Source of the DNA: an uncultured Eubacteriales bacterium
Lineage (GTDB): Bacteria > Acidobacteriota > Aminicenantia > Aminicenantales > UBA4085
Length of the DNA stretch: 64,000 nt
Reading direction: 5' to 3'
NCBI GenBank assembly: GCA_964556755.1
Contig: CAZKXI010000005.1
Span: 94,762 to 158,761 of the forward strand
The translations under genes and the position numbers were made by a program. The notes below the pieces were generated by a model, which had not been told where the DNA came from, searched no databases, and saw nothing but the letters and a program-made list of their open reading frames with translations. Below, in pieces: positions 41,510-64,000 of this stretch. The stretch's first letter is position 1. Each line of letters begins with the position of its first letter.

Positions 41510-41513
<4 letters not shown>
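40644..41513 (+). CDS. ABC-2 family transporter permease
   Basis: Six predicted TM helices, downstream of the ATPase. Confidence 0.7.
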
Positions 41514-42429
<916 letters not shown>

Positions 42430-42433
<4 letters not shown>

Positions 42434-45722: not shown

Positions 45723-46003
45723 GATGAATCCTCCTCTCCCTATCATACGAAATCAACCCTCTCGGGGTTCTCCCCGGAGCATAGCACAGGGCCGCCGGGG
45801 GATACAATGGCGGCGCATGCGGCCCCGGGTCCCAGCCATGGCCGCGCGAAGGCCATTTCCCTCATCCGTGGGATGGGGCCGAGGGAGCCCATCCGCGGAG
45901 AATGGCACGGGGAAGGAGAGATGGCCTTCGGGGCGGGATTGGTATATATAACCTCCGCGCCTCCGGACAGGGCTCGGCTTTGTCGGGAGGCCGGGAGGAT
46001 TCC

Positions 46004-47873: not shown

Positions 47874-48154
47874 GTTGTCTACTCCTTTCCTATAGAAACA
47901 GTATGATATAAGATCCTCCCCCCTGTCAACCCCGCGGGGACAGGGGGCCGCCGGCGCGACTCGAATCCGGAAGCCCGAGGGACGCCGGGCCGGGACGGAA
48001 GGGAATAGTGTAGTCGAGTCGGCCGGCCGGCGCAACGATCCGGGCCGCGCGCCGTTTTATGCTAAAATAGCCGTCCTTCGACCACGGAGATCGATCCATT
48101 TTCGAGCCGAGTCCGCAACCCGATCGAGCCGGCCTCCGCCGCCGGGCCGGGCTT

Positions 48155-50140: not shown

Positions 50141-50169
50141 TTGTCCGAAAGCCCCCCATCGGCCATAAT
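50141..50169 (+). promoter_or_regulatory. Sigma-70-like promoter TTGTCC-17-CATAAT upstream of the first ABC-2 permease
   Basis: Hexamers with a 17-nt spacer, 28 nt upstream of the ATG at 50197; GGGAGGG RBS. Confidence 0.4.
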
Positions 50170-50196: not shown

Positions 50197-51609
50197 ATGC
50201 TGCGAGACATCATCAAGAAGGAGATCGTGGAGACGATCACCAGCCCCAAGTTCGTCTTCACCTTCCTGCTCTGCACCGTCCTGATCCTGTTGTCCGTCTA
50301 CACCGGGATCACCAACTACCAGGCGGAGAAGAAGGAGTACGACGCGGCCGTCGCCCTGAACAAGAAGAACCTGGAGAGCCAGTCCAGCTACCAGAACCTG
50401 GCCGGCCTGGGGACCAAGATCAACCGTCCGCCCCAGGTCCTCAGCACCGTCGCTTCGGGCGTCAGCGAGGCGGTCGGCCGGGTGGCCACGGTCAACGTGG
50501 CCTACGATCCCAGCCTGGTGGACAGCAAGTACGAGAGCAACCCGGTCTTCTCCATCTTCGGGGCCCTGGATCTCTCGTTCATCGTCAAGATCGTCCTCAG
50601 CCTGTTCGCCCTCCTCTTTACCTACGACGCCATCGTCGGCGAGAAGGAGCGGGGGACGCTGAAGCTGACCCTGTCCAACCGGGTGCCGCGCGACCGGCTG
50701 ATCATGGGCAAGGTCATCGGCGGCTACATCAGCCTGCTCATCCCCCTCATCATCCCGCTCATCCTCAGCCTGCTCATCATGCTCGTCTACCCCAACATCT
50801 CCCTGGCCGGGCAGGACTGGGCCCGGCTGCTGTTGATGTTCGCCCTGTTCTTCCTCTACCTCTCGGTCTTCTTCACCCTGGGCATCTTCGTCTCGGCCCG
50901 GACGAGCAAGAGCTCGACCAGCTTCCTGGTCCTGCTCTTCATCTGGGTCGTCTTCGTCACGGTCATCCCCAAGGTTGCCGTCCTGGCCGCCTCCCAGATC
51001 AAGCCCATCCCCTCGGTCCACGAGATCACGGCCAAAAAGGACGCCTTCCTGCAGCAGATCCAGGTCAGCACGCAGAAGGAGGCCATGGACTGGATCAAGG
51101 AGAACCAGCCCAAGACGCCCGGCGAGGACCCCAAGATCTTCCAGGAGAAGATCCGCAAGTACATCGAGAATCTGCAGAGCGAGGCGACCTCCAAGATCGA
51201 CGCCAACAACGCCGCCCTGGAGCGCGACTACCAGATGAGGCGGCGGGCCCAGGAGCGGCTGGCCGTCAACCTGTCGCGCGTCTCGCCCGCCTCGGCCCTG
51301 ATGTTCTCCTCGATGAGCCTGGCCCGGACCGGGCTGGAGGAGAATGACCGCTTCGCGGCCTCGATCCGAGCCTATAAGCCGATCTTCACCCAATGGGTCA
51401 ACCCCAGGATGATGCAGGCCATCGACTTCCAGAACGGCGGGACGACCGGCAAGGTCTCCCTGGCCGACATGCCCCAGCACAGGTTCGAGCCCGAATCTCT
51501 GAGCAGGTCGCTGGCCCGGGCCCTGCCGGACTTCCTGGTCATGGCCGGCTTCATCCTGGTCTTCTTTGTCGGAGCCTACGTCTCCTTCCTCAAGTACGAC
51601 GTCCGCTGA
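50197..51609 (+). CDS. ABC-2-like transporter permease paralog 1 (large periplasmic loop; C-terminal YDVR motif)
   Basis: Conserved N-terminus (M..IIKKEI...SPKF) and C-terminal ...FLKYDVR shared with four paralogs. ~6 TM helices with a ~150-aa soluble loop. Confidence 0.7.
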   Translation: MLRDIIKKEIVETITSPKFVFTFLLCTVLILLSVYTGITNYQAEKKEYDAAVALNKKNLESQSSYQNLAGLGTKINRPPQVLSTVASGVSEAVGRVATVNVAYDPSLVDSKYESNPVFSIFGALDLSFIVKIVLSLFALLFTYDAIVGEKERGTLKLTLSNRVPRDRLIMGKVIGGYISLLIPLIIPLILSLLIMLVYPNISLAGQDWARLLLMFALFFLYLSVFFTLGIFVSARTSKSSTSFLVLLFIWVVFVTVIPKVAVLAASQIKPIPSVHEITAKKDAFLQQIQVSTQKEAMDWIKENQPKTPGEDPKIFQEKIRKYIENLQSEATSKIDANNAALERDYQMRRRAQERLAVNLSRVSPASALMFSSMSLARTGLEENDRFAASIRAYKPIFTQWVNPRMMQAIDFQNGGTTGKVSLADMPQHRFEPESLSRSLARALPDFLVMAGFILVFFVGAYVSFLKYDVR

Positions 51610-51618
51610 GAGGCTGCT

Positions 51619-52335
51619 ATGCTGGAAACCATTCATCTGACCAAGCGCTACGAGGACGGCTTCCTGGCCGTGGACGACCTGAGCCTGAAGGTCGAGCCGG
51701 GCGAGATCTTCTGCATGTTCGGGGCCAACGGGGCCGGCAAGACGACGACCATCAACATGCTTTTGGGCTTCCTAACCCCGAGCTCCGGGATGGCCCTGGT
51801 CGAGGGTCTCGACGTGGCCAAGGAGCCGCTCCGGTCCAAGGACCACCTGTCCTTCGTCTCCGAGAACGTCATGCTCTACGGCAGCTTCACCGCCTTCCAG
51901 AACCTGGACTACTTCTGCAAGCTGGCCGGCAAGCGGAGCCTGACTCGGGCCGACTACGCCCGGGCCCTGGAGAGCGTCGGCCTGCAGAAGGAGGCCTTCG
52001 CCCAGCGGAGCAAGAACTACTCCAAGGGCATGCGCCAGAAGCTGGGCCTGGCCATCGCCCTGCTCAAGGACGCCCCCAATATCCTCCTCGACGAGCCGAC
52101 CTCCGGCCTCGACCCCAAGTCGGGTCAGGAGTTCCTGGAGCTCCTCGTCCGGATGCGCGACCAGGGCAAGTCGATCTTCATGTCCACCCACGACATCTTC
52201 CGGGCCAAGCTGATCGCGGACCGGGTCGGCTTCATGAAGAGAGGCCGGCTGGTCATGCTGAAGACCCGCCGCGAGCTTGAGGGCGAGGATCTGACGGAGC
52301 TCTACATCCAGTACATGGACGAGCGGGAATCCTGA
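51619..52335 (+). CDS. ABC transporter ATP-binding protein
   Basis: Walker A (GANGAGKTTT), signature (YSKGMRQK) and Walker B (ILLDEPTSGLD) motifs. Confidence 0.85.
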   Translation: MLETIHLTKRYEDGFLAVDDLSLKVEPGEIFCMFGANGAGKTTTINMLLGFLTPSSGMALVEGLDVAKEPLRSKDHLSFVSENVMLYGSFTAFQNLDYFCKLAGKRSLTRADYARALESVGLQKEAFAQRSKNYSKGMRQKLGLAIALLKDAPNILLDEPTSGLDPKSGQEFLELLVRMRDQGKSIFMSTHDIFRAKLIADRVGFMKRGRLVMLKTRRELEGEDLTELYIQYMDERES

Positions 52336-52363
52336 TCCCGGCGGGGCGAAGCGCTTCGCGGCC

Positions 52364-53797
52364 TCAGCGAGGGTCGGTGCGCAGGAACGAGGCGTAGGCG
52401 GCGGCGAAGACGGCCAGGGCCAGCCCGGTCAAGACCAGAAACGGGATCCAGACCGCCTGCCAGCGCTCCGCGGCCGTCTGCGGCCTGAAGACGAAGCGGG
52501 GCATGTCGCTGACGTCGACGGGGGTGTTCCAGGCGTCCCGGGTCGGTTCGTCTCTCTGGATCGCCTCGATCTTCTTGCCGGCGTAGTCCCTGTACTGACT
52601 CCACCAGGCCGAGGCCAGCTCCTGGAAGTGAGCTTGGCCCTTCAGCCCCGTGCCCGAGGCGTCGGCGGAGTAGTAGGTGAAGGCGGCCATGGGTGAGACC
52701 GTCGAGAGGGCTACCGCGAGATTGGTCTGGGCTTCTTCCTTGAGCCGAAGGTCGTCCTCCAGGGCGGCGGCCTTGGCGCCCTGGATCCGATTGGCCTCAT
52801 CCCAGCCGGACTGCCCGGCCTTGCGCCACAGACCGTATGCCCGGGCGAAGCCCGCGTCGCGGCCCAGGGCGGCTTCGATCTCGGCCTTGGACATCTTCTC
52901 CAGGCCGGCCAAGACCGGGTTATCCCTCAGGACGACGGCCCTCTTCTCGCCGGCCAGGCGATTCCCCAGCGCGTCCCGGTCCACGTCGGTCAGCCGTCTG
53001 ACCTCGCGGCCGACCTTGATGGCCGAAGGCGCCGGCCGAAGGAGCGATGCGGCGTAGGGGCTGAGATTGGGCAGGACGAGGACGGCCAGAACCCAGACGA
53101 ACAGGGCTGTCATGATGGAGGAGCCGCTGGCCTGGTGTCGGGCCGAGATCCAGAGACCCAGTCCGTAGAAGAGGGTCAGGTAGACGATCGATCCGGCGGC
53201 GATGAGGCCGAGGGCCGTCCAATCCGGCCCGGCCCAGCCGAGCCCCGGGCGGGCCAGAAGGAGAATCAGGCTGAGGACCAGGGAGACAAGAAAGGGGATG
53301 AGCAGGGTCGCCACCCCGCCGGCCATCTTGGCCAGGATGACGGTGGACCGCGGCATGGCGTTGGCCAGGATGAGCTTTAAGGTCCCGTCCTCACGCTCGC
53401 CGCAGACGGCGTCATAGGACAGGATCAGAGCCGCCAGGCTCATCAAGACGGCGACGATGAAAGTCAGATCGAGGAAGGGAAACATGACCGGCAGGGGATC
53501 GTTGTCGAACGATTCCAGCTGGACGTCGTCCGAGAGGCCCCGGACCAGGGCCTGGATCGGGAGCGGCGGCCGGGCCGGCGCGACGACGCCCTGCAGGCGG
53601 TTGAAGTGGGCGTAGCTGGCCAGGTAGCGCTCCACGGCGGCCCTCCGCTCGGAGAACTCGGCCTGGCGTCGGGCCGCGTCGCTGGATAAAACGAGGACGG
53701 CGGCCGGCAGCAGGGCCAGCAGCAGGACAAAGACGGCCTGGAAACGGAACGAAAGGAAGTGGTTGCGGATCTCTTTCCGGACCATCGCTCCAAACAT
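52364..53797 (-). CDS. ABC-2-like transporter permease paralog 2
   Basis: Start MFGAMVRKEIRNHFLSFRF and end ...FLRTDPR match the paralog consensus. Confidence 0.68.
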   Translation of the reverse strand: MFGAMVRKEIRNHFLSFRFQAVFVLLLALLPAAVLVLSSDAARRQAEFSERRAAVERYLASYAHFNRLQGVVAPARPPLPIQALVRGLSDDVQLESFDNDPLPVMFPFLDLTFIVAVLMSLAALILSYDAVCGEREDGTLKLILANAMPRSTVILAKMAGGVATLLIPFLVSLVLSLILLLARPGLGWAGPDWTALGLIAAGSIVYLTLFYGLGLWISARHQASGSSIMTALFVWVLAVLVLPNLSPYAASLLRPAPSAIKVGREVRRLTDVDRDALGNRLAGEKRAVVLRDNPVLAGLEKMSKAEIEAALGRDAGFARAYGLWRKAGQSGWDEANRIQGAKAAALEDDLRLKEEAQTNLAVALSTVSPMAAFTYYSADASGTGLKGQAHFQELASAWWSQYRDYAGKKIEAIQRDEPTRDAWNTPVDVSDMPRFVFRPQTAAERWQAVWIPFLVLTGLALAVFAAAYASFLRTDPR

Positions 53798-53808
53798 GCC
53801 CTCTCTCC

Positions 53809-55041
53809 TCATCGCACGTCCGCCTTGGCCACGGCCGCGTAGGCCGCGGCGAAGAGGAGCACGGTGACGGCCAGCAGCCAGGCCGTATCGACGAGACCCC
53901 CTTCGGCCAGGACTCGGCCCAGGGATCTGTACCGGTAGTCGAAAGCGGGGATGTCGGTCGAACCGGCCTCCAGGAGGGGCAGAACCCGGTTCTTGTAGCC
54001 GATGATCTCCCTCTTCAGCCGGCTCTCCTCGTCGATGCCCGTCCCGGCCGCCTCGGTCGCGGTGGAGGCGAAACCGGCCGCCGGGGAGAGGCGGTTGATC
54101 GTCTTGGCCAGCCGGACCAGGCGGCCGAAGCGGACCCTGTAGTCTTCCTCCATGCGGTCAAGCTCGTCGTTGATCGCCGCCAGGTGCGGAGCCCGCCCCT
54201 CCGGGTCCGTGTAGGAAAGGAGGATCTCGCGCGACCAGACTTGGTCCCGCTTTTCGGCCAGCGCTTTGACCGAGGGCACGTCGACGAGCTGGCGGGCGGC
54301 CAGGGTGCCCAGGTTGGGCAGAACGAAGACGAGCAGGGCCCAGGCCACGAGCAGGATGACGAGAGAGGACGAGGAGCGCCGGGTCAGGGCCGAGACGAAC
54401 AAGCCGAGGCTGAGAAAGAGGGCGATATAAGCCAGGCTGAGGCCGAGCAGAAAGGCCAGCCGAACGGCCTGGCCGCCGCTCAGTCGGAAGGACGGGGACA
54501 GGCCGAGCAAGGCGATCCCGATCATCGTGACCAGGAGGAAAGGGACGGCCAGGCTGGCCAGGCTGCCCAGCCACTTGCCGGCCATCAGCGTCGAGCGGGG
54601 CAGAGCGTTGGCCAGCTGGAGCTTTAGGGTCCCGTTCTCCCGCTCCCGGCTGACGAGATCGAAGCCGAAGAGCAGGGCCACGAGCGAGAGGACGATCTTG
54701 ACCACGTAGACGAAGTCGGGGGCCGGAAAGAAGGCGAAGACGGGATTGCCGCCGCCGCGGCCGGTCCGGGCCTCGATTCCGGTGAGCCCGACCTCGAAGG
54801 ATCGGGTCATGGCCTCGTCCAGGCCCTTGGCGAAGACCGACAGCGGATTGGGCGGCAGGACCGCGATCGGCTGGCCGGGATCGGGCCGGATCAGCTGGTA
54901 GTCGGCCTGCCGGGCCCGGAAGTCGCGGCCCATCACGAAGAGCGAGGTGAAGATCAGGACCGAGGCCAGCAGGATGACGATGAAGAACTTGTAGCTGAGG
55001 AGATTCGCGGCGATCTCTTTCCTGACGATGGTCCCGATCAT
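53809..55041 (-). CDS. ABC-2-like transporter permease paralog 3
   Basis: MIGTIVRKEIAANLLSYKF ... AKADVR. Confidence 0.7.
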   Translation of the reverse strand: MIGTIVRKEIAANLLSYKFFIVILLASVLIFTSLFVMGRDFRARQADYQLIRPDPGQPIAVLPPNPLSVFAKGLDEAMTRSFEVGLTGIEARTGRGGGNPVFAFFPAPDFVYVVKIVLSLVALLFGFDLVSRERENGTLKLQLANALPRSTLMAGKWLGSLASLAVPFLLVTMIGIALLGLSPSFRLSGGQAVRLAFLLGLSLAYIALFLSLGLFVSALTRRSSSSLVILLVAWALLVFVLPNLGTLAARQLVDVPSVKALAEKRDQVWSREILLSYTDPEGRAPHLAAINDELDRMEEDYRVRFGRLVRLAKTINRLSPAAGFASTATEAAGTGIDEESRLKREIIGYKNRVLPLLEAGSTDIPAFDYRYRSLGRVLAEGGLVDTAWLLAVTVLLFAAAYAAVAKADVR

Positions 55042-55050
55042 GGCCGCGGC

Positions 55051-55791
55051 TCAGGCCGGCAGGGGCTCGGACTTCATGTAGTCGATATAGATCTTGACCA
55101 GATCTTCGACCTGGAGCTCCTCGCGGGTCCGCTCCATGACCAGCCGGCCCTCCTTCATGATCCCGACCCGGTCGCCGATCTCCTTGGCCCGGAAGATGTC
55201 GTGGGTCGACATGAGGATGGCCTTGCCCTCGGCCTTGAGCTCGCGGAGGATGTCCTGGAACTCCTCGGCCGCCTTGGGATCGAGGCCGGAGGTCGGCTCG
55301 TCGAGCAGGATCGCCGCGGCATCCTTGATGATGGCGATGGCGATGCCCAGCTTCTGGCGCATGCCCTTGGAGAAGGTCTTGACCCGCTGCTCGAAGGCCT
55401 TCTCCTGCAGCGACACCCGGCGCATGACCTGGTAGTACTGCTCCCGGGCCAGGTGGGGCTTGCCGCCCAGCTTGGCGAAGAAGTCCAGGTTCTGGCGGGC
55501 CGTGAAGTTGCCGTAGAGCATGACGTTCTCGGAGACGAAGGCGACGTGCCTCTTGGCCTCCAGCGGGTCGCGGGCCACATCGATGCCGTTGATGAGGCAG
55601 CGTCCGGTCGTCGGCGGGATGAAGCCCAGGAAGAGGTTGATGGTCGTCGTCTTGCCGGCCCCGTTGGCGCCCAGCAGACAATAGACCTCGCCCGCCCGGA
55701 CGGTCAGGTGGAGATGGTCCAGGGCCAGGACGCCGTCCTCGTAGCGCATGGACAGGTCGTCGGCCTTGAGAATGACGGATCGTTCGGTCAT
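55051..55791 (-). CDS. ABC transporter ATP-binding protein (paralog of 51619..52335)
   Basis: ATG at 55791 (MTERSVILKADDLSMRYEDG). Walker A (GANGAGKTTT), signature (FSKGMRQK) and Walker B motifs. The upstream track extension is spurious. Confidence 0.85.
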   Translation of the reverse strand: MTERSVILKADDLSMRYEDGVLALDHLHLTVRAGEVYCLLGANGAGKTTTINLFLGFIPPTTGRCLINGIDVARDPLEAKRHVAFVSENVMLYGNFTARQNLDFFAKLGGKPHLAREQYYQVMRRVSLQEKAFEQRVKTFSKGMRQKLGIAIAIIKDAAAILLDEPTSGLDPKAAEEFQDILRELKAEGKAILMSTHDIFRAKEIGDRVGIMKEGRLVMERTREELQVEDLVKIYIDYMKSEPLPA

Positions 55792-55823
55792 GGGATGCTC
55801 CTCAGGGCGCGCGCCGGGCGGCC

Positions 55824-57305
55824 TCAGCGGCGGGTCAGCTTGATGCCGAAGACCACGACCCCGACCAGGAGGCCGACCAGGAGCAGGGCCAGCAGGACGA
55901 CGCCCAGGACGTTGGTCTTGGAGGCCACGTGGACCCGCACGATCTTGTCCTCGGACTCGACCTTGCGGTTGTCGGCGCTGCATTCGGTCTTGATCTTGGG
56001 CTCGTAGTCGCCCACGGCCACGTCGGCCGGGGGCAGGAACTGGATGCGGACGACCTCCTCCTTGCCCTGCTCCAGCGCGGCGATCAGGTCGGGGGAGATC
56101 TCGGATCGCCAGTTGAGCGGCAGGTCGGCGGCGATGTGAATGTTGTTCAGCGGCCGGGTGCCGGCGTTCTTGACCCTGACCTCCATGTCGACGCTCTGGC
56201 CGACCCGGATCTCGTGATAGAGATTGACCGCCTGGACCTCGATCTTGCCCACGCCGCGGGGGATGAGCTCCAGCTTGACGTGGCCCGCCTTGAGGGCGGC
56301 GATGTCGGCCGGCTTGACCTCGCCGCGCTCCCGGACGGCCTGCAGGCCCGCGGCTTGCTCGTTGTCCAGGGCCAGGGCGTAGAAGGCCAGGGGCTTGTCG
56401 ATGACCACTTGGGCGTCGGCGTTCTTGGGCAGATAGAGCTTCAGCTGCAGCTTCATCGAGGTGACGCCCTCGGTGAACTTGATCTGGGACAGGCGGGCCT
56501 GGGTGGTCGGGTCGGAGAACTCGTAGTTGACCGGCCGGGGCAGGTTGGCCAGCTCCAGTTTGAAGACGTTGGCCTCGCCGGAGAACTTCTCCAGCGACAG
56601 GTCGTAGGTAGCGGTGCTCTCCAGGTCGGCCTCCTGCGAGAACTGGGCCGAGTTGACGGTCACGATGTTGGCGCTGACTCCCTTCTGCAGGTAGACCGAG
56701 GTCGTCTCGGACTTGCCGGAGTAGAAGACGCTGACGTCCAGGTTCTCGACGTCCTTGAGCAGCTGGAAGGTCACGTCCCGCTCCGTCTCGAGCGGCATGG
56801 AGGAGATCGTCTTCTCGTAGGGATCAGAGATGATCTTGGCCTCCGACTTGAGCGAGACCGAGACGTCCTTGATCTCCTTCATGAAGTCGACCGGGAAGAG
56901 GTCCTCGGCCTTGATGGCCAGGTTGTCCAGCTGCTTGAGCTCCTTGGAGGAGTAGCGCAGGGTGACCCGGACGAACTTCTTGCCGCCGGCGTCCTGGAAC
57001 TTGACGGCGCTGGCCACGTTGATGCGGGCCTCGCTGCCCATGAAGGCGATCAGGGCCTGCTGGAAGTCGACCTGGGCCTGCAGGTAGGCCGTCTGGACCA
57101 GGGCGAACTCCTGCTCGGAGGTCAGGCCCTGCTCCTTGAGCTTCAGGGAGCGGTCGAAGTCGCCCTTGGTCTTCTCCTTCTGGAGCTGGGCCTTCTTCAG
57201 GGTCAGGAGCTTCATCGTCTGCGACGGCGCTTCCTGGGCGGGCAGGGCGGCGGCCGCCCCGAACAAGAGGAATCCGGCCATGATGGCCGCGGCGAGCTTT
57301 CTCAT
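55824..57305 (-). CDS. Membrane-fusion-protein-like periplasmic adaptor with inverted topology (signal peptide, HlyD-like coiled coil, beta domains, C-terminal TM anchor)
   Basis: N-terminal signal peptide, a coiled-coil heptad region (QLQKEKTKGDFDRSLKLKEQGLTSEQEFALVQTAYLQAQVDFQQA), ~350 aa of beta-rich sequence, and a C-terminal hydrophobic helix VLGVVLLALLLVGLLVGVVVFGIKLTRR. Start overlaps the TolC-like stop. Confidence 0.6.
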   Translation of the reverse strand: MRKLAAAIMAGFLLFGAAAALPAQEAPSQTMKLLTLKKAQLQKEKTKGDFDRSLKLKEQGLTSEQEFALVQTAYLQAQVDFQQALIAFMGSEARINVASAVKFQDAGGKKFVRVTLRYSSKELKQLDNLAIKAEDLFPVDFMKEIKDVSVSLKSEAKIISDPYEKTISSMPLETERDVTFQLLKDVENLDVSVFYSGKSETTSVYLQKGVSANIVTVNSAQFSQEADLESTATYDLSLEKFSGEANVFKLELANLPRPVNYEFSDPTTQARLSQIKFTEGVTSMKLQLKLYLPKNADAQVVIDKPLAFYALALDNEQAAGLQAVRERGEVKPADIAALKAGHVKLELIPRGVGKIEVQAVNLYHEIRVGQSVDMEVRVKNAGTRPLNNIHIAADLPLNWRSEISPDLIAALEQGKEEVVRIQFLPPADVAVGDYEPKIKTECSADNRKVESEDKIVRVHVASKTNVLGVVLLALLLVGLLVGVVVFGIKLTRR

Positions 57306-58921
57306 TGGTGGGCCTCCCCGGCGTCGGTGATCTTGATGGCGCGCTTGTCCAGGCTGGTGCCCGTAGCCTTGTCCAGCAGGCCGCGGGCCAGGGTATAGTC
57401 GACGAGGGCCCGCAGCTCCGCCGTCTTGGCGGCGGCCAGGTCCCTCTGGTAGGTCAGGACGTAGAAGTTGCTGCTGAGGCCGACCTTGAGCTTGGCCTCC
57501 TCGGCCTGCAGCTTCTCCTCGGCCAGCTCGCGGGCCGAGCGGCGGGCCAGGACCCGCTCGTAGTTGGTCTCGACGGCCCGCACGGCGGCCCGGATCTCGA
57601 TGACCGCGGCCTGCTGGCGCTGCTTCAGGACGGCCGTCTGCTGGTCCAGCCCGGCCTGGGCCTGGGCCCGGGCGGCCCGGGTGAAGACCGTCGACAGCGG
57701 GATGTCCAGCGACACGGCCACGGACCAGTTGTCGTACTTGAATCGGAGGGCGTCTTGGACGGCCTGTCCGGAGCCGCTGGAGACACGGCCGATGATGATG
57801 CCGGTCAGGGGATTGTCGTCCTGGAAGAGGATCCGGTCGCCGGACAATCCCGGGCTCCAGTAGCGGGTGGTCAGGTTCAGCGCCGGCAGGGTCTGGTTCT
57901 TGGCGTAGGCCAGGCTGATCTGCTTGTTGCGGATGCCGAGCGTGGCGGACTGCAGGTCGGGCCGGTTGAGGAGGGCCACGGCCAGGGCTTCCTCCAGGCC
58001 GATCTCGGCCGGGACGAGGCGGGGCGTGTCGGAGGGGACGAGATCGGCCGCATCCCGGCTGAAATCGAGGTTCAGCAGGCCGCGCAGGGTGTCGGAGGAG
58101 TCCCGGACCAGCATCTCGGCCTGCAGGATGTCGGCCTTGCGGCTGGCCACCTCGGCCTGGGCGCTGATGACCTCCTTGGGAGCCAGGGTGCCGATGGCGG
58201 CCTCCTTGCGGCTCTTGTCGAGAAGGTCCTCGGCCAGGGCCAGGGACTGGCGTTGCACGGCCAGCGACTCGATCCGGTAGACCAGCTCCCAGTAGTTGGT
58301 CTCGACGGCATAGACCGTCTCCAGCAGGGCCGCCTTGAGGTCGTTGCCGGCGATGTCCCGGTTGTTGCGGGCGATGAGGATCTCCTGGCGGCTGGTCGCC
58401 CAGCCGAAATCCTTGAGCAGGGGCTGGGTGTAGGCGAAGGAGAGGCGCCCGCTGTAATAGGGATTGATGGTCTGGAAGGCCGAGTTCGAGTTGTAGCGCT
58501 GGGTGGCCATGGACAGGGACAGCGAGCCTCCCAGCGGGGCGTTCTGGCTGATCGTGCCGGTGTAGGAACGGGACTGGTTGGCTACGACCTCGGCCGCGTC
58601 GATCCAGGAGTAGGAGGCCGAGTTCTGGCTGTCGTTGTAGTAGTCGAACGACAGCGTGGGCAGGAATTTCTCGCCGGCCTGGACCAGGCCGTGATCGGCC
58701 TGACGGAAAGTCAGGACTTGGACCGTGACGCCGAGGTTGCGCCGGACCGCTTGCGCGATGCAGTCCTCCAGGGACATGGCCTGGGTGGCTCGGGCGGACG
58801 CGGCCGGCTTGTCCTGGGGGGCCAGGAGCGCCGGCGGTCCGGCCGGCAGGAGGGCCGGCAGCAAGAGCAGGATCGCCGGCAGAGCCGGGCCGAGGCCGTG
58901 GGGCCAGCGGAATTTTTTCAT
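57302..58921 (-). CDS. TolC family outer-membrane efflux protein
   Basis: Signal peptide and two repeats of the OEP alpha-helical/beta-barrel pattern (LSLEDCIAQAVRRN...; LGLEEALAVALLNRPDLQ). Confidence 0.8.
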   Translation of the reverse strand: MKKFRWPHGLGPALPAILLLLPALLPAGPPALLAPQDKPAASARATQAMSLEDCIAQAVRRNLGVTVQVLTFRQADHGLVQAGEKFLPTLSFDYYNDSQNSASYSWIDAAEVVANQSRSYTGTISQNAPLGGSLSLSMATQRYNSNSAFQTINPYYSGRLSFAYTQPLLKDFGWATSRQEILIARNNRDIAGNDLKAALLETVYAVETNYWELVYRIESLAVQRQSLALAEDLLDKSRKEAAIGTLAPKEVISAQAEVASRKADILQAEMLVRDSSDTLRGLLNLDFSRDAADLVPSDTPRLVPAEIGLEEALAVALLNRPDLQSATLGIRNKQISLAYAKNQTLPALNLTTRYWSPGLSGDRILFQDDNPLTGIIIGRVSSGSGQAVQDALRFKYDNWSVAVSLDIPLSTVFTRAARAQAQAGLDQQTAVLKQRQQAAVIEIRAAVRAVETNYERVLARRSARELAEEKLQAEEAKLKVGLSSNFYVLTYQRDLAAAKTAELRALVDYTLARGLLDKATGTSLDKRAIKITDAGEAHQ

Positions 58922-58963
58922 GGGCGTGTCTCCGGGCTCGAGTGCTTCATCGAGCCGAACAAT

Positions 58964-58979
58964 TGCACGAATCGTGCCA
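58964..58979 (-). promoter_or_regulatory. Sigma-54 (-24/-12) promoter TGGCAC-N5-GTGCA for the TolC-MFP-ATPase-permease operon
   Basis: Minus-strand TGGCACGATTCGTGCA gives a GG-N10-GC match, ~40 nt upstream of the TolC ATG at 58921. Confidence 0.55.
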
Positions 58980-59074
58980 AGGATTCATACGGCGGGACTC
59001 GGGGGAAGTTTCCCTTCCGCCGGGAATCGCATTACCCGCCCCGGGCACACTCTTACCCGAATGACCTGAATTAG

Positions 59075-59120
59075 CAGACACAAACCGAATTCAGTTTCCA
59101 GACACATACCGAATTCGCAG
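59075..59120. repeat. Tandem 24-bp direct repeats CAGACACA(A/T)ACCGAATTC (candidate enhancer-binding-protein sites) between divergent sigma-54 promoters
   Basis: CAGACACAAACCGAATTCAG at 59075 and CAGACACATACCGAATTCGCAG at 59099, with a partial third unit (CAGACTGACAC) at 59118, in a locally AT-richer segment. Confidence 0.5.
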
Positions 59121-59200
59121 ACTGACACTTGCCCGCGTCAAGGCCCATACTCGGTCTGAAGCCGTCGCCTATTGTCTTGCTTGCCCTCGGCTCTTCCGGA

Positions 59201-59216
59201 TGGCATGTTCCTTGCA
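59201..59216 (+). promoter_or_regulatory. Sigma-54 (-24/-12) promoter TGGCAT-N5-TTGCA upstream of the permease 4/5-HK-RR operon
   Basis: TGGCATGTTCCTTGCA, ~58 nt upstream of the ATG at 59274; AAGGAG RBS. Confidence 0.6.
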
Positions 59217-59273
59217 ATTCCACTTCAAGAGGCGAAGTCGTTTGCCGCGCGCTGTTGCGCCAAGGAGCGGGTC

Positions 59274-60881: not shown

Positions 60882-60884
60882 GCC

Positions 60885-62279
60885 GTGTGGAAAGCCGTCC
60901 TCAAGCGCGAAATCCAGCATAACCTCTATAGCTTCCGCTTTCTCCTGGCGCTCGTCCTGATCTTGTGCGTCTTCATCGCCGGGTCGCTGTCCTTCATCCG
61001 CTCCCACGCCGGCGCCCTGGCCAAGGACCGTGAAGCCCGCGGCATCGCGACCCGAGTCCTCGAGGAAGACGCCGCCAACGCCACCCGCCTGGCCGTGCGC
61101 CATCGTAGCTACGACTTCCGTCCCCGCGACAATGCCTTCCTGGCCGACGCCAAGGAAAAATACCTCCCCAATTCGATCGAATACAGCGCCTGGAACGTCT
61201 TCGGCTTCCAGAACAAGAGCGGCAGCGCTAATCCCTTCCTGGCCCGCTATGATGAGCTGAGCTGGGTCTTTGCCGCCGCCCTTCTGGTCAGCTTCATTTC
61301 CCTTCTCTTCACCTTCGATGCCGTCTCGGGCGAGAAAGAGACGAAAACCCTGTCCCTGGCCTTGGCCAATCCCGTGTCGCGCGGTACGCTCCTCTTCGGC
61401 AAGTACGCCAGCGCGGTCCTGTCGGTGATGGCGGCTGTTCTGCCGGGCGTCCTGGTCAGCCTGCTTATCCTGATCATCTCGGGCATCATCGGCTGGAGCT
61501 GGACCCTGGGCGCGGAGGTTGCGGCCTTCCTGCTGGCCGCGGGGCTGCTGGCCGCGTCGATGGCCGCCTTCGGTCTGCTCTGCTCGGTCCTGGCCCGCAA
61601 TTCCAACGTCAGCCTGCTGCTGGGCCTCTCGGTCTGGCTTCTCTTTGCCGTGGTCATCCCCAACTCGAGCGGATTTCTGGCCAAGAAGCTCTATCCGATC
61701 GCCAAGGCCGAAGCGGTCGGGGAGAGAGTCAACAGGGTCTACGACGACTTGACCAAGGCTGCCCCCCCGGGAAGCTGGATGTCGGATTCGTCCAACCCGT
61801 TCCTTCCTCAGCACGAATTGCGGGCCAATCTGCAGCGCAAACGGCTGCAGGCGCTCAAGTCCATCCGGGATGATTATTTCCGGACCATGTTCCGGCAGTA
61901 CGAGCGGACGAGACGGTTGACGGCGCTGTCTCCGGTGGCCGCTTTCGAATACCTGGCTGAATCCATCTCCGGCGGCGGCTACCCCCGTTTCCGGCGGGCC
62001 TGGGAAGATATCCACGTCTTCCAAGGGCAGTTCCAGGCTTTCTTCACCTCCTTCGACGCGGCGGACCCCAAAAGCCCGCATTGGTACAATCCCAACGAGG
62101 ATGTCTCTACGACCCGGCAGAAGGTCTCGGTCGACATCGTGCCCCGATTCTCCGAGCGGCCGATGGCGTTGGCCGACCGGCTCGCTCCGGCGCTGCCGCA
62201 TCTGGGCGTCCTGGCTGCGTCGGCGGGCCTGATTTTTCTGCTCAGCTTCTTTCTCTTCGTCCGCTACGACGTCCGTTGA
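60885..62279 (+). CDS. ABC-2-like transporter permease paralog 5
   Basis: MWKAVLKREIQHNLYSFRF ... FVRYDVR. Confidence 0.7.
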   Translation: MWKAVLKREIQHNLYSFRFLLALVLILCVFIAGSLSFIRSHAGALAKDREARGIATRVLEEDAANATRLAVRHRSYDFRPRDNAFLADAKEKYLPNSIEYSAWNVFGFQNKSGSANPFLARYDELSWVFAAALLVSFISLLFTFDAVSGEKETKTLSLALANPVSRGTLLFGKYASAVLSVMAAVLPGVLVSLLILIISGIIGWSWTLGAEVAAFLLAAGLLAASMAAFGLLCSVLARNSNVSLLLGLSVWLLFAVVIPNSSGFLAKKLYPIAKAEAVGERVNRVYDDLTKAAPPGSWMSDSSNPFLPQHELRANLQRKRLQALKSIRDDYFRTMFRQYERTRRLTALSPVAAFEYLAESISGGGYPRFRRAWEDIHVFQGQFQAFFTSFDAADPKSPHWYNPNEDVSTTRQKVSVDIVPRFSERPMALADRLAPALPHLGVLAASAGLIFLLSFFLFVRYDVR

Positions 62280-62318
62280 GCCAGCGTCCGCCGACGTCTA
62301 CGGAATTCCGATCCCTGT

Positions 62319-62327
62319 TGATATAAT
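62319..62327 (+). promoter_or_regulatory. Extended -10 promoter element TGaTATAAT upstream of the histidine kinase gene
   Basis: Perfect TATAAT with an upstream TG, 16 nt before the ATG at 62343; weak -35. Confidence 0.35.
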
Positions 62328-62342
62328 GGCCCTGGGCCCATC

Positions 62343-63578
62343 ATGAAGCTCTTCCACGCCCGCCGCCGCGACGAGAAGCTGCCCCTCCTCGTCTTTCGCG
62401 AGTTCGAAGCGGGCGTCAACCTGATCGAAGACTACGACCAGATCGCCCGCAACTTCCTGGGCAAGATTCGGGAGGTCTGTCCCGCCCCCAAGCTCCTCCT
62501 GCTCGTCCACGACTCCATCAGCGGGCGCTTCCAGCCGGCCGCCTCCGTGGACGTGGGCGAGGCCGAGGCCCGGGCCGCCGTCATCCCGCGCGACTCGCGG
62601 CTGGCCAAGTGGCTCAAGCTCAACGAGACCCACCTGGAGCTCAAGCGGAGTCCCGGCCTGGACGGCTATCTGAGGCCCAAGGAAGCCGGCCTCCTGGCCT
62701 CCTTGGGCATCGAGACCGCCTTCCCCCTGATCTCGATGAACCGCCTGATCGGCATCCTCCTGGTCGGCGGCAAGCCCGGCGGCGCCCCCCTGTCCCGGAC
62801 GGAGATGGCCTTCATCCGGGCCCTTCTGCCCCAGGCCGGCATCGCCCTGGAGAACGCCCTGCTCTTCAAGGAGCAGCGGGAGCGCTTCCGGCGCATGTCG
62901 CGGGCCGACCGTCTGGCCACGGTCGGCGAGCTGGCCGCGGGCGCCGCCCACGAGATCCGCAATCCCCTGACCGCCATCCGATCCACCCTTCAATACCTCG
63001 AATCCAAGGTCGCCGAGGAGGCCTCCCGGCGGCTGATCGCCTCGGCCCTGCAGGAGACCGGCCGCATCAACGACATCGTCTCGGCCCTGCTGGCCTTCTC
63101 CCGCCCGGCCGAGATCGTCCGCGAGCGCCACGATCTGCGCCAGACCCTGGCCGAGAGCTTGGAGCTGGTGGCTTTCCAGGCCCGCTCCAAGGGGGTGACG
63201 GCCCACAGCGAGCCGACGGCCGAACCGCTCCCGGTCCTGGGCGACCGCTCCCAGCTCAAGCAGCTCTTCCTGAACGTCTTCCTCAACGCCATCCAGGCCA
63301 TGCCCGCCGGAGGCGACCTGCGGATCGAGGCCTCGGCCGGGCCGCCCGGCAAGGCCCTGGTCGCCGTCAGCGACACCGGCGAGGGCATCCCCGAGGAGAA
63401 TCTGGACCGCGTCTTCGACCCCTTCTTCACGACCAAGAAAGGGGGCACGGGCCTGGGCCTGTCCATCTGCTACAACATCGTCAAGTCGCACGGCGGCGAC
63501 ATCGAGGCGCGCCGCCGGCCCGGCTCGGGCACGACGATCCTCATCCATCTGCCGCTCGACGGAAGCGAGGCGCCATGA
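62343..63578 (+). CDS. Cytoplasmic sensor histidine kinase (GAF-like N-terminus, HisKA, HATPase_c)
   Basis: No TM segments. H-box (AAGAAHEIRNPLTAI), N box, and G1/G2 motifs (DTGEGIP; GGTGLGLSI). Confidence 0.82.
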   Translation: MKLFHARRRDEKLPLLVFREFEAGVNLIEDYDQIARNFLGKIREVCPAPKLLLLVHDSISGRFQPAASVDVGEAEARAAVIPRDSRLAKWLKLNETHLELKRSPGLDGYLRPKEAGLLASLGIETAFPLISMNRLIGILLVGGKPGGAPLSRTEMAFIRALLPQAGIALENALLFKEQRERFRRMSRADRLATVGELAAGAAHEIRNPLTAIRSTLQYLESKVAEEASRRLIASALQETGRINDIVSALLAFSRPAEIVRERHDLRQTLAESLELVAFQARSKGVTAHSEPTAEPLPVLGDRSQLKQLFLNVFLNAIQAMPAGGDLRIEASAGPPGKALVAVSDTGEGIPEENLDRVFDPFFTTKKGGTGLGLSICYNIVKSHGGDIEARRRPGSGTTILIHLPLDGSEAP

Positions 63579-64000
63579 AGCTCAAGATCCTGATCGTCGA
63601 CGACGAGCAGGCCATCCGCGACATCTTCTCGCTCCTGCTGGAGGAGAAGGGCTTCGACGTCGCCACGGAGGCCAGCGGCCGCGACGGCCTGGCCCGGGCC
63701 CGCTCCTTCGTCCCGGACGTCCTGCTCCTGGACATGAACCTGCCGGACATGACCGGCCTGGACGTGCTGGCCGGAGTGAAGGACACGCTGCCCGCCTGCC
63801 GGATCATCGTCGTCACCGCCTTCGGCACGATCCGCAACGCGGTCGAGGCCACCAAGCGGGGCGCCTACGCCTATCTGGAGAAGCCGGTCGACAACGAGGA
63901 GCTGCTCCTGCTGATCGAGCGGGCCTTGGAGGTCCGCCGGCTGGAGGCCGAAGTGGCCGGCCTGAAGGCCGAGCTCAGCGCCCGCTACCGCTTCTCGGAG
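63575..64000 (+). CDS. Sigma-54-dependent (NtrC-family) response regulator, 3'-truncated by the window end
   Basis: ATG overlaps the HK stop (ATGA). Receiver domain (ILIVDDE...LLLDMNLPDM...KRGAYAYLEKP), then the start of the AAA+ sigma-54 activator domain (RYRFSE...). Not in the ORF track. Confidence 0.75.
   Translation, partial: MKLKILIVDDEQAIRDIFSLLLEEKGFDVATEASGRDGLARARSFVPDVLLLDMNLPDMTGLDVLAGVKDTLPACRIIVVTAFGTIRNAVEATKRGAYAYLEKPVDNEELLLLIERALEVRRLEAEVAGLKAELSARYRFSE

Follow-up and report, generated by a model that had tools for sequence, protein, structure and literature searches.

Paired ABC-2 permeases and an adaptor-like protein of inverted anchoring point to an undescribed kind of envelope-spanning pump in an uncultured Aminicenantes bacterium

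The DNA analysed here, referred to as the window, is a 64-kb stretch from an uncultured Aminicenantes bacterium, and the organisms with which it is compared are all uncultured MAGs. Between positions 50197 and 64000, Pfam and NCBIfam models identify five permeases (P1 to P5), two ABC ATPases (A1 and A2), a TolC-family channel (OEP), a protein that we call X, a GAF kinase (HK) and a response regulator (RR), and every gene described in the initial annotation was found in its place. Gene spacing fits the three-operon layout proposed there and gives P1-A1 on the forward strand, OEP-X-A2-P3-P2 on the reverse strand and P4-P5-HK-RR on the forward strand, with within-operon gaps of -4 to 63 nt when ORF-start coordinates are used. 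The OEP and P4 genes diverge from each other and lie 352 nt apart, and the convergent A1 and P2 genes are separated by 28 nt. The host is diderm, with Kdo transferase, Lnt and a TonB-dependent-receptor-like protein encoded in the window.

All five permeases match Pfam ABC2_membrane_2 (E-values of 1e-25 to 1e-36), most of them also match DUF3526, and they are 23-39% identical to one another. As had been claimed they are paralogues, by sequence old members of a single NosY-like ABC-2 family rather than of unrelated families. Each carries the shared termini noted before, M-x3-5-(R/K)KE(I/C) at the N-terminus and (Y/A/T)D(V/P)R at the C-terminus, and a cytoplasmic loop motif, GEKE-GTL, is nearly invariant across all paralogues, so that all of them should be able to couple to an ATPase. 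P1 (50197..51609, +; 470 aa; ABC2_membrane_2 6.7e-36, DUF3526 1.6e-9) has a predicted periplasmic DUF3526 insert and six predicted transmembrane segments. P3 (53809..55041, -; 410 aa; ABC2_membrane_2 3.3e-25) and P2 (52364..53797, -; 477 aa) are the first and second members of a core pair; the second ATG of P2 is its probable start, and an alternative start is at 53812. The pair P4-P5 consists of P4 (59274..60881, +; 535 aa; ABC2_membrane_2 9.1e-34), whose predicted periplasmic insert is the longest among the permeases and whose start was corrected to M35, and P5 (60885..62279, +; 464 aa; Pfam 8.5e-31), which has a GTG start.

The ATPase A1 (51619..52335, +; 238 aa; Pfam ABC_tran 6.5e-26) is of the DrrA/GldA-like subfamily, with an NCBIfam drrA match of 1.4e-53 that lies under the cut-off. 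A2 (55051..55791, -; 246 aa; ABC_tran 2.6e-28) was corrected to start at M65, behind a GAGGAG Shine-Dalgarno sequence, the longest ORF being an overcall here as it is for P4; this leaves 32 nt between X and A2. The two ATPases, previously described as near-identical, are in fact only 61% identical. A2 is the sole ATPase gene of its operon, beside two permease genes, and in related loci one A2-type gene accompanies between two and eight permease genes. The excess of permeases over ATPases that had been remarked upon is therefore unusual indeed, and was understated, as relatives reach eight permeases per ATPase gene.

Both a synteny comparison and a permease phylogeny, which had been proposed as checks, bear on how these permeases are organised. 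Across 78 related loci the permease genes form adjacent pairs, 66 in number and of six types, with gaps mostly of 3-19 nt that suggest translational coupling; the P4-P5 pair occurs in 18 loci with gaps of 3-7 nt. The P3 orthogroup is found in 42 loci, P2 is co-present in all that are sufficiently complete, and both are kept even where another pair has been inserted between them (L050, L063). In the phylogeny, P4 and the orthogroups G13 and G10 form a clade of first members, and P5, G14, G12 and G8 form a separate clade of second members, from which it follows that pairs were duplicated as units. Taken with the presence of one ATPase per two to eight permeases, this co-duplication points to interchangeable heterodimers that would share a single ATPase motor, and the earlier suggestion of heteromeric permeases thereby gains comparative backing. 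Median identity across loci is 86% for A2, the most conserved part, 74% for X and 51-62% for the permeases, as would be expected if A2 and X were shared hub subunits. P1 is the stand-alone paralogue, is paired with its own ATPase, A1, and probably works as a homodimer; a three-gene P1-A1-X unit is present in 11 related loci.

The channel gene (57302..58921, -) encodes a 539-aa TolC-family outer-membrane protein, as had been proposed, matching Pfam OEP in two stretches (4.4e-35) and the NCBIfam TolC family (1.2e-26). It has a signal peptide, lacks a lipobox and carries one glycine-containing motif per repeat, IGT (243-245) and VGL (480-482). Its stop codon overlaps the start of X by 4 nt, and an OEP-family gene is adjacent in 52 of 76 related loci; no OEP gene lies within 10 kb in the other 24, which include all 11 P1-A1-X loci.

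Protein X (55824..57305, -; 493 aa; Pfam NPCBM_assoc 1.2e-12) begins with a cleavable signal peptide, followed by an alpha-hairpin (residues 29-89) with the tip motif R52-x3-L56-x6-S63, three Ig-like beta-sandwich domains (94-205, 215-313 and 341-461, the last being NEW3/NPCBM_assoc) and a C-terminal transmembrane helix (466-492) that ends in KLTRR. An AlphaFold2 model (pLDDT 90.7) reproduces the hairpin, the three sandwiches and the terminal helix. The RxxxLxxxxxxS spacing was defined for MacA, AcrA, MexA and HlyD and is the motif by which classical adaptors dock TolC (PMC3391258; PMC6447562). Among 117 representatives of the X family the three motif positions hold R in only 56%, L in 89% and S or T in 82%. 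The family profile matches seven different adaptor structures, in the hairpin region each time and nowhere else; the matches, which include MexJ, ZneB, MexA, MacA and AcrA, are individually weak (E 0.007-0.2). Residues 35-85 of X also show a weak NCBIfam CzcB match, and a Bacteroidota orthologue has a weak precomputed Pfam HH_CzcB match. X has no lipoyl, beta-barrel or membrane-proximal adaptor domain, and a Foldseek search with the model yielded no adaptor, only tandem Ig-like folds of a generic kind. It should be noted that 7 of 39 X-family members weakly match the OEP model itself, so that the hairpin similarity could be a generic coiled-coil resemblance. Homologues with as little as 27% identity nonetheless retain the hairpin, the C-terminal anchor and the motif's L and S/T. 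X is outside the classical HlyD/AcrA family, with which it shares the hairpin tip motif, and is anchored by the opposite end of the chain; the inverted topology first proposed for it is borne out by an N-terminal signal peptide and hairpin and a C-terminal membrane helix. On the strength of its fold and motif, X appears to be an adaptor built unlike all known ones that connects the pump to the TolC-like channel.

The kinase HK (62343..63578, +; 411 aa; Pfam HATPase_c 5.5e-29, HisKA 3.6e-14) has an AtoS/ZraS-like core by NCBIfam and a GAF-like N-terminal region (GAF_3 6e-5, under the cut-off). No transmembrane or hydrophobic segment is predicted in it, and it is read as the cytoplasmic GAF kinase that had been described; a kinase of this location would be an unexpected sensor of a peptide outside the cytoplasm, which counts against the model given below. 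RR (63575..64000, +) is cut by the end of the window after its REC domain (Response_reg 6.9e-28) and the start of a linker. The AAA+ domain implied by its annotation as an NtrC-type activator lies beyond the window here and was confirmed in an orthologue (L002) that matches the REC part at 84% identity and contains Response_reg, Sigma54_activat (3.8e-68), AAA_lid_14 and HTH_8; by domain content the RR orthologues are NtrC-type sigma-54 activators.

A scan of the whole window for TGGCAC-N5-TTGCA with at most one mismatch found two sites, against 0.47 expected, both in the OEP/P4 intergenic region and both correctly oriented. One putative -24/-12 promoter, TGGCACGATTCGTGCA (58964..58979, -), lies 43-58 nt upstream of the OEP ATG and would serve OEP-X-A2-P3-P2; the element occupies the same position in orthologous loci. 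The other, TGGCATGTTCCTTGCA (59201..59216, +), lies 58 nt upstream of the P4 ATG, would serve P4-P5-HK-RR and is kept on the same side in seven loci (L002, L070, L071, L003, L004, L007 and L075). Sigma-54 sites precede the X operon in 24 of 32 loci with the kinase vs 3 of 41 without it (Fisher p = 2e-9). Between the two promoters is a putative upstream activator site (59021..59058) made up of dyads of the GGGTAA-N5-TTACCC type (59021-59037 and 59043-59058), which are conserved in 10 orthologous intergenic regions while their flanks diverge; both GGGTAA/TTACCC hexamers found in the whole window lie here. Upstream regions contain the hexamer 1.69 times on average in loci with the kinase, 0.18 times in loci lacking it and 0.08 times in the background, an enrichment of about 20-fold over background that is limited to kinase-containing loci, and half-site repeats are also found in loci of the RR<HK<X> type. 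These dyads are the probable binding site of the NtrC-type regulator. A direct repeat, CAGACACA(A/T)ACCGAATTC (59075..59116, +), present in two copies 24 nt apart and confined to the closest relatives, is possibly a second regulator site. Upstream of P1-A1 there is neither a sigma-54 site nor a GGGTAA half-site, and a weak sigma-70-like match, TTGTCC-17-CATAAT, lies at 50141..50169 (+). The sigma-54 two-component control proposed for the cluster is therefore upheld, at the sequence and comparative level, for the OEP and P4 operons, two of the three, and not for P1-A1.

A model for how such a machine might work can be outlined. Each of the NosY-type (type V, ABC-2) permeases would have, between its TM5 and TM6, an extended insert that is entirely helical and is predicted to lie in the periplasm. 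Gene order and phylogeny suggest that permeases would dimerise on dimers of ATPases: P1 would use A1, and P3/P2 and P4/P5, as heterodimers, would take turns on the single ATPase A2. The C-terminal helix of X would fix the protein in the inner membrane, and the three-Ig stalk would raise the N-terminal hairpin so that the hairpin tip could dock the tip of OEP through R-x3-L-x6-S; because the hairpin bears this TolC-docking motif, X would link the permease complexes to the co-transcribed channel. By analogy with MacAB-TolC and with LanFEG immunity pumps, ATP hydrolysis would expel an amphipathic substrate from the membrane or periplasm through the channel, with different permease pairs supplying different specificities. 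The GAF kinase would phosphorylate the regulator, which would bind the dyads between the divergent promoters and activate OEP-X-A2-P3-P2 together with its own operon, P1-A1 being expressed separately.

On balance we favour the reading that these genes together specify a single ABC machine, regulated, spanning the envelope and of an undescribed type, in which X links permeases to OEP. It should be noted that NosDFY, the closest solved relative, is a periplasmic mechanotransducer and not a transmembrane exporter, which counts against an export function here. An unlikely alternative is a machine that, like NosDFY, LolCDE or FtsEX, uses ATP to move the helical inserts and X and so powers some process of the periplasm or outer membrane, for example the extraction, insertion or maturation of lipids, lipoproteins or surface components, with OEP as a conduit or anchor rather than an exit duct for drugs or peptides. 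However, a TolC-family channel transcribed together with the pump genes and a motif of the TolC-docking type on X are the marks of export through a channel. The cluster contains no conserved periplasmic client (NosD, NosZ) or lipoprotein partner, and the number of interchangeable permease pairs is easier to reconcile with diverse substrates than with one maturation task. It is rather improbable that the permeases are independent homodimeric transporters that are merely clustered, their pairing a product of tandem duplication, even though some orthogroups (P1, G2, G7) occur singly and NosY, Wzm and TarG are homodimeric ABC-2 permeases in solved structures. Simple tandem duplication would set sister genes side by side, whereas the pair members come from different deep clades and whole pairs were co-duplicated; the constant company of P3 and P2 in every judgeable locus and the short, apparently coupled gaps argue in the same direction.

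If X were instead a COG1470-like NEW3 membrane protein that serves the ABC-2 transporter at the surface, in an accessory or substrate-binding role, its hairpin resemblance would be coincidental and OEP would be left to work with another partner or directly with the permease inserts. Such a role would agree with an adaptor resemblance that is weak and restricted to about 60 residues, with the Foldseek result and with the P1-A1-X loci that lack an adjacent OEP gene. We consider it very improbable, given the conservation of hairpin, motif positions and anchor at 27% identity, the restriction of all seven structure matches to the hairpin and the 4-nt overlap of the two genes. One locus, L080, cuts both ways: it has OEP-X-X' with no recognizable ABC genes in its flank, and the persistence of OEP-X adjacency without them argues for a partnership between the two proteins. 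Finally, the kinase-regulator pair is absent from the vicinity of 45 of 76 loci and a cytoplasmic GAF kinase hints at no envelope signal, but we give scarcely any credence to the pair being a mere neighbour that controls a different regulon: it shares an operon with P4-P5 behind one sigma-54 promoter, sigma-54 sites and GGGTAA half-sites both track its presence, and a Bacteroidota locus has the same GAF kinase and sigma-54 regulator before the same module.

The module of X, ATPase and permease recurs in Bacteroidota and in other unclassified lineages, and in most cases a channel gene is close by. Distant homologues of X, 27-46% identical, are once more neighbours of an ATPase gene and of DUF3526 permease genes; L079, L082 and L083 have an OEP gene in the vicinity, L081 and L085 none. 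Neither in the window nor in any of the 76 Aminicenantes loci does a peptide or RiPP gene lie close to the cluster. At three distant loci the module adjoins genes for cysteine-rich peptides, in two of them with radical-SAM enzymes: in L062 and L085 a P-P-X-A module lies next to four tandem Cys-rich precursor genes and a radical-SAM enzyme, and in L082 a gene for a Cys-rich peptide with a Sec signal precedes each permease pair. Peptides are thus possibly the substrate class, and cysteine-rich, RiPP-like peptides are the best lead, one that comes from distant relatives only. The region represents a genuine cell-envelope pump of a kind not described before, and most likely a regulated, envelope-spanning pump for expulsion.

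The region between positions 50197 and 64000 of the window contains eleven genes in three transcription units, whose reading frames were chosen by codon-position G+C because the G+C content of the window is approximately 65%. The first unit, on the plus strand, encodes the permease P1 (50197-51609) and the ABC ATPase A1 (51619-52335). The second, on the minus strand, encodes a TolC-family outer membrane channel (OEP, 58921-57302), a 493-aa adaptor-like protein (X, 57305-55824), a second ATPase (A2, 55791-55051) and the permeases P3 (55041-53809) and P2 (53797-52364). The third, again on the plus strand, encodes the permeases P4 (59274-60881) and P5 (60885-62279), followed by a histidine kinase (HK, 62343-63578), which lacks membrane segments and is built of GAF-like, HisKA and HATPase domains, and a response regulator (RR, 63575 to the end of the window). 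Gaps between genes inside the three units range from -4 to 63 nt, and most of the eleven genes are preceded by a Shine-Dalgarno-like sequence. Searches against Pfam and NCBIfam, together with this gene map, bore out all of the components described in the initial annotation with two exceptions, and the interpretation of the cluster as a whole as an efflux-like system is supported. The two ATPases, described there as near-identical, share only 61% identity.

Exact or near-exact copies of X are encoded in metagenome-assembled genomes (MAGs) of Candidatus Aminicenantes/Acidobacteriota. As the window also encodes a Kdo transferase, apolipoprotein N-acyltransferase (Lnt) and a TonB-dependent-receptor-like protein, the organism is diderm, and an outer membrane channel therefore makes sense. 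Many of the related loci carry the titles 'uncultured Eubacteriales' or 'uncultured Clostridia' (L009, L015-L019, L023, L024 and others). X from these MAGs is mostly 70-80% identical to X from named Aminicenantes MAGs (51-56% for the 'Clostridia' loci L062 and L065), so these labels look unreliable.

The flank of the cluster holds several further genes. Some 7 kb upstream, at 39715-43224, lie two tandem pairs of an ATPase and a small ABC-2 permease (309 + 289 aa and 307 + ~300 aa) lacking DUF3526 inserts, which constitute a separate, ordinary-looking ABC-2 system. Two proteins of approximately 400 aa encoded on the minus strand (44541-45746 and 46848-48035) show a coding-like codon bias and match no family significantly, and a homologue of the first (38-40% identical) is found beside the kinase and regulator genes in L009 and L010. 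The gene for a 287-aa protein with a TonB C-terminal domain (48155-49018) overlaps the start of a 366-aa gene (48996-50096) that has no Pfam match and, on the same strand, immediately precedes P1. Both were left out of the cluster because the 366-aa gene is kept beside P1 only in the closest relative, L070.

All five permeases fall into one family, the NosY-like permeases of type V (ABC-2) ABC exporters, with matches to Pfam ABC2_membrane_2 of 89-124 bits against a curated cut-off of 27.2, and most also match DUF3526. They are thus paralogues, as had been proposed, but old ones, only 23-39% identical to one another. In each, a first helix and an extracytoplasmic loop of some 80 residues lead to four further helices, an insert of 130-250 residues and a last helix that directly precedes the conserved C-terminal YDVR. 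The six-helix fold, with both termini cytoplasmic, is superimposable on that of a solved ABC-2 member. As in other ABC-2 systems the ATPases are encoded by separate genes alongside the permeases, which have a conserved cytoplasmic loop, E134-K135-E136-x2-T139-L140, that is nearly invariant among 70 permease paralogues and is predicted to couple them to the ATPase.

A scan of one genome per species recovered 78 loci with relatives of X, apparently one per genome, in which the core order X-A2-P3-P2 is kept and a single A2-type ATPase gene is accompanied by one to about eight permease genes. The 206 full-length permeases from these loci cluster into approximately 14 recurrent orthogroups (named P for those of the window and G for others), most of which occur as fixed adjacent pairs: P3-P2, P4-P5, G6-G8, G10-G12, G13-G14 and G11-G9. 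The genes of a pair are mostly separated by 3-19 nt; P1, G2 and G7 are found singly. In L050 and L063, where the P4-P5 pair separates P3 from P2, the two still occur together. A neighbour-joining tree groups the first members P4, G13 and G10 in one clade and the second members P5, G14, G12 and G8 in another, indicating that the pairs were duplicated as units. Such unit-wise duplication is the pattern expected of obligate heterodimers rather than of simple tandem duplication, and together with the fixed adjacency it favours the earlier suggestion that the permeases are heteromeric. Gene order and phylogeny suggest that A2 dimers would serve the P3/P2 and P4/P5 heterodimers alternately, while a P1 homodimer would work with A1. 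Median identity across loci is 86% for A2 and 74% for X, compared with 51-62% for the permeases and 44% for OEP, and the far better conservation of X and A2 suits subunits that must fit many partners.

X is annotated in databases merely as a 'NEW3 domain-containing' or hypothetical protein. Its family comprises 636 representative clusters at a threshold of E <= 1e-3, falling to 197 at E <= 1e-30. All aligned members, down to 26% identity, share a single architecture, in which a signal peptide ending in A-Q precedes an amphipathic hairpin, three beta-rich regions and, at the C-terminus, a hydrophobic helix with RLxRR after it. In the AlphaFold2 model of X (pLDDT 90.7) the hairpin is formed by helices at residues 29-58 and 64-89. 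Three Ig-like beta-sandwich domains follow at 94-205, 215-313 and 341-461, the last of which is the NEW3 domain. The model and the sequence then place a transmembrane helix at 466-492, ahead of KLTRR. The signal peptide is of the cleavable type (ALPA/QE) and has no cysteine. This signal peptide and the C-terminal helix are kept family-wide. X does not have the N-terminal anchor (transmembrane helix or lipid) of the periplasmic adaptor family. It also lacks the lipoyl, beta-barrel and membrane-proximal domains to which both halves of the chain contribute in that family, and none of 39 X-family members matched a Pfam or NCBIfam model for HlyD, lipoyl or barrel domains.

When the model of X was compared with the PDB using Foldseek, no periplasmic adaptor was found and no specific structural relative emerged; the matches were generic tandem Ig-like folds with TM-scores of 0.2-0.3, from integrin legs, ciliary proteins, macroglobulin domains and S-layer proteins. 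A profile of the X family searched against all PDB sequences matched seven different adaptor proteins, including a putative efflux adaptor (4l8j), MexJ, ZneB, MexA, a MacA chimera and AcrA. All of these matches are weak (E 0.007-0.2), and in every case the aligned stretch is exactly the alpha-hairpin of the adaptor and residues 30-90 of X. The NCBIfam CzcB model likewise matches residues 35-85, and a Bacteroidota orthologue has a weak precomputed Pfam match to HH_CzcB. The hairpin carries the adaptor tip motif RxxxLxxxxxxS(T) as R52-x3-L56-x6-S63, and among 117 family representatives 56% have the R, 89% the L and 82% S or T. Experiments have demonstrated binding of this 'RLS' motif to the TolC tip for MacA, AcrA and MexA, and of RLT for HlyD (PMC3391258; PMC6447562). 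The predicted structure and the motif suggest that X works like an adaptor yet lies outside the adaptor family, being devoid of its three domains and anchored by the opposite end. In the PADLOC library of defence systems, X, the permeases and OEP were unmatched, and A2 gave only generic ATPase matches.

The candidate partner of X, OEP, has an N-terminal hydrophobic segment as its signal peptide and two tandem repeats, seen as two stretches of similarity to Pfam OEP (4.4e-35); it also matches the NCBIfam TolC family (1.2e-26), below the equivalog cut-offs. Each repeat contains one glycine motif, IGT at 243-245 and VGL at 480-482. From their position in the sequence these are putatively located where the channel tips would contact adaptors, a role of tip glycines having been described for OprM (PMC6447562).

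The initial annotation placed the whole cluster under sigma-54 and two-component control, a proposal supported for the OEP-X-A2-P3-P2 and P4-P5-HK-RR operons but not for P1-A1. There is no exact match to the sigma-54 consensus TGGCAC-N5-TTGC in the window. Only two sites lie within one mismatch of TGGCAC-N5-TTGCA (0.47 expected by chance), and both fall 222 nt apart in the 352-nt intergenic region between OEP and P4, each pointing at one operon. These predicted promoters have GG at -24 and GC at -12 with the spacing of TGGCAC-N5-TTGCW and a candidate upstream activator site, and both elements are found at the same positions in orthologous loci. Across 73 loci, a sigma-54 site is present upstream of the X operon in 24 of the 32 that have the kinase and in 3 of the 41 that do not (Fisher p = 2e-9), the three exceptions being incomplete contigs. 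Between the promoters, at 59021-59058 and 42-95 nt upstream of the one on the minus strand, are two dyads of the type GGGTAA-N5-TTACCC, which are kept in ten aligned intergenic regions with diverged flanks. Elsewhere in the 64-kb window the GGGTAA hexamer is absent. Upstream regions contain on average 1.69 copies of it in loci with the kinase and 0.18 in loci that lack the kinase, against 0.08 in background, and it is also repeated in loci with the different arrangement RR<HK<X>. Within the window RR consists of a REC domain (6.9e-28) and linker only, and its orthologue in L002, which shares 84% identity with it in the REC part, is a full NtrC-type activator with REC, sigma-54-interacting AAA+ and Fis-type HTH domains and a GAFTDA loop. 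Upstream of P1-A1 there is no sigma-54 or GGGTAA element, only a weak sigma-70-like match. Thus OEP-X-A2-P3-P2 and the operon of the regulator itself are predicted to form a sigma-54 regulon, and the third operon, P1-A1, appears to be regulated separately.

The same intergenic region contains, at 59075-59116 between the sigma-54 promoters, a direct repeat, CAGACACA(A/T)ACCGAATTC, in two copies 24 nt apart. Each copy ends in an EcoRI-type palindrome and is distinct from the GGGTAA dyads. The repeat is present only in the closest relatives (L002, L070) and may be bound by a second regulator, for instance IHF or a repressor.

Aminicenantes are abundant in anoxic sediments, and the system is a conserved, apparently single-copy feature of the group that is also found in Bacteroidota, Latescibacterota and unclassified metagenomic lineages. 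We examined the neighbourhoods of seven more distant X homologues, 26-54% identical to that of the window. With P and A denoting permease and ATPase genes, L079 has the order X-OEP-P-P-A-P-P-P-P, and in L081, from Bacteroidota, a GAF kinase and a sigma-54 regulator precede P-A-P-P-P-P-X. L082 has A-X-OEP and then two permease pairs (its X homologue is 718 aa long), L083 has X-A with OEP and permease genes nearby, L084 has a GAF kinase followed by X-A-P-P, and L085 has P-P-X-A. L080, from Latescibacterota, has OEP-X-X', and 7 kb downstream of these genes a PAS kinase and a sigma-54 regulator are encoded. A TolC-like channel gene is near most of the seven, and a sigma-54 two-component system near several. 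Recurrence of the same module in such distant loci indicates that X, one ATPase and several DUF3526 permeases together are an ancient, transferable unit. At L080 (687-5067) two X paralogues of 505 and 506 aa lie in tandem after the channel gene and the available flank has no recognizable ABC genes, which suggests that the partnership of OEP and X can exist apart from linked ABC genes.

In three distant loci (L062, L085 and L082) the module adjoins genes for small cysteine-rich peptides. In L062 (89-2380, 3188-10724) an X relative of 55% identity lies inside a RiPP-like cluster. Downstream of four precursor-like genes in tandem, each encoding a C-x2-C-x3-C-x3-C-x2-C core, come genes for a radical-SAM/SPASM enzyme, a permease pair and Lnt, and after these genes for a B12-radical-SAM enzyme, X and an ATPase. 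The second such cluster, in L085 (1887-11816, X 46% identical), encodes a radical-SAM enzyme and four tandem precursors of about 50 aa that share the leader MDWLMEPLNGFK and have a four-cysteine core, then a 308-aa unknown protein, a classical ABC_membrane exporter and P-P-X-A. In L082 (14250-14745, 17690-18460) a segment of ~330 nt is duplicated, with one copy before each of the two permease pairs, and the copies encode peptides with a common Sec-signal-like leader (MAKMRLSDLIRSEDARTGRKNVATVAGMVGASALG...) and different cysteine-rich C-terminal parts. These three are the only loci in which the module sits in or next to a peptide biosynthetic cluster, as LanFEG does; the window and the 76 Aminicenantes loci contain no precursor-like, small cysteine-rich, radical-SAM or lanthipeptide genes. 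One Aminicenantes MAG (L013:3668-4081, minus strand) encodes, near its HK-RR/OEP-X cluster, a 137-aa secreted protein with 18 cysteines in CxC/CxxxC repeats that looks metal-binding.

In lantibiotic clusters the peptide is exported by LanT and the producer is protected by the heterodimeric ABC-2 transporter LanFEG, and the separate ABC_membrane exporter beside P-P-X-A in L085 recalls this division. LanFEG (NisFEG) consists of the ATPase LanF and the permeases LanE and LanG, and expels a cysteine-derived cross-linked peptide from the membrane. A1 and A2 match the lantibiotic-protection ATPase model at 3e-42 to 4e-45, below its cut-off, and the permeases match MutG marginally (E 0.006). LanFEG differs in belonging to monoderm bacteria and in having neither channel, adaptor nor periplasmic insert. 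MacAB-TolC, a tripartite efflux pump of ABC type VII that exports the Sec-delivered cysteine-rich enterotoxin STII, resembles the present system in that an ABC transporter with large periplasmic domains takes its substrates from the periplasm or membrane and an adaptor docks a TolC-family channel through an RLS hairpin tip. The peptide-linked loci resemble lantibiotic clusters in their arrangement and also recall the export of STII. In MacB, however, an FtsX-type fold of four helices is fused to the ATPase, whereas here a six-helix ABC-2 permease is served by a separate ATPase. MacA is built of an N-terminal helix and membrane-proximal, beta-barrel, lipoyl and hairpin domains, of which X has only the hairpin, set on an Ig-like stalk with a C-terminal anchor, and no array of alternative permease pairs is known for MacAB. 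YbhGFSR of E. coli and HP1486-1489 of Helicobacter combine ABC-2 permeases (in the former YbhS and YbhR, two different proteins presumed to form a heterodimer) with a periplasmic HlyD-type adaptor and a TolC-type channel. In these systems, by contrast, the adaptor (YbhG) is a canonical HlyD-family member, the permeases lack the DUF3526 helical insert, each ATPase has one permease pair and no sigma-54 control is known. The DevBCA-HgdD glycolipid exporter, in which multiple paralogous DevBCA sets use one TolC-like channel, has an FtsX-type DevC and a canonical adaptor, DevB. Of the named NCBIfam models GldF comes closest to the permeases, with E values of 1e-5 to 5e-8 that fall far short of the cut-off, and the gliding-motility GldAFG system also has an accessory membrane protein that is not an adaptor, GldG, although as an ABC_transp_aux protein this is unrelated to X. 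Neither GldAFG nor DevBCA-HgdD is known to share one ATPase among several permease pairs. GldAFG itself was rejected because its matches are far below curated cut-offs and gldG is absent.

The reading that we favour, and consider probable, is that the cluster encodes a sigma-54-induced, envelope-spanning expulsion pump with alternative permease heterodimers, a shared ATPase, an Ig-stalk adaptor and a TolC-like channel. According to this model the NosY-type heterodimers, driven by the shared ATPase, would pass substrate through or alongside X into the channel. The main rival explanation, which we regard as unlikely, sees in the cluster a NosDFY-like mechanotransducer acting on a periplasmic or outer membrane target. 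In NosDFY itself, an ABC-2 complex that serves the maturation of nitrous-oxide reductase, NosY is a 270-residue homodimer without the helical insert of ~160 residues, and its partner is the periplasmic beta-helix protein NosD, not an OEP or X-like protein. The nos system proper was rejected, its matches being far below curated cut-offs and all nos genes, among them nosD, nosZ and nosL, being absent. A more specific form of the expulsion pump is a tentative possibility at present. In it the cluster would represent a phylum-spanning, hitherto unrecognized class of diderm envelope machine, in which a non-MFP adaptor with a C-terminally anchored Ig-like stalk and a TolC-docking hairpin is combined with one ATPase dimer time-shared by co-duplicated NosY-type heterodimers. 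With its helical insert, predicted to be periplasmic, each heterodimer would recognise a different cysteine-rich or RiPP peptide, whether produced by the cell itself or by competitors, and would eject it via the TolC-like channel. This would make the system a Gram-negative counterpart, induced through a cytoplasmic GAF kinase and sigma-54, of LanFEG immunity with plug-in specificity.

We regard the expulsion pump as a variant of tripartite ABC pumps. The literature searched contains nothing on this system, on the adaptor architecture of X or on motor-sharing permease arrays, and a 2026 review of adaptor proteins makes no mention of Ig-like, immunoglobulin, C-terminal transmembrane or non-canonical forms. 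To our knowledge a single adaptor family, of four domains and N-terminally anchored, serves all the tripartite pumps that have been studied (RND, MFS, MacB-type and type I secretion). If our reading is correct, X would provide a second, structurally unrelated route to a TolC channel, implying that only the hairpin tip is indispensable, and would offer a natural minimal system for the tip-to-tip docking model. ABC motor sharing is otherwise known mainly in importers and ECF transporters, and one ATPase gene for up to four co-duplicated permease pairs would be a rare instance of it among ABC exporters. It would also amount to a natural experiment on the determinants of specificity in ABC-2 permeases. 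Finally, the occasional place of the module inside radical-SAM peptide clusters is a concrete lead to a role in peptide warfare or signalling among uncultured bacteria.
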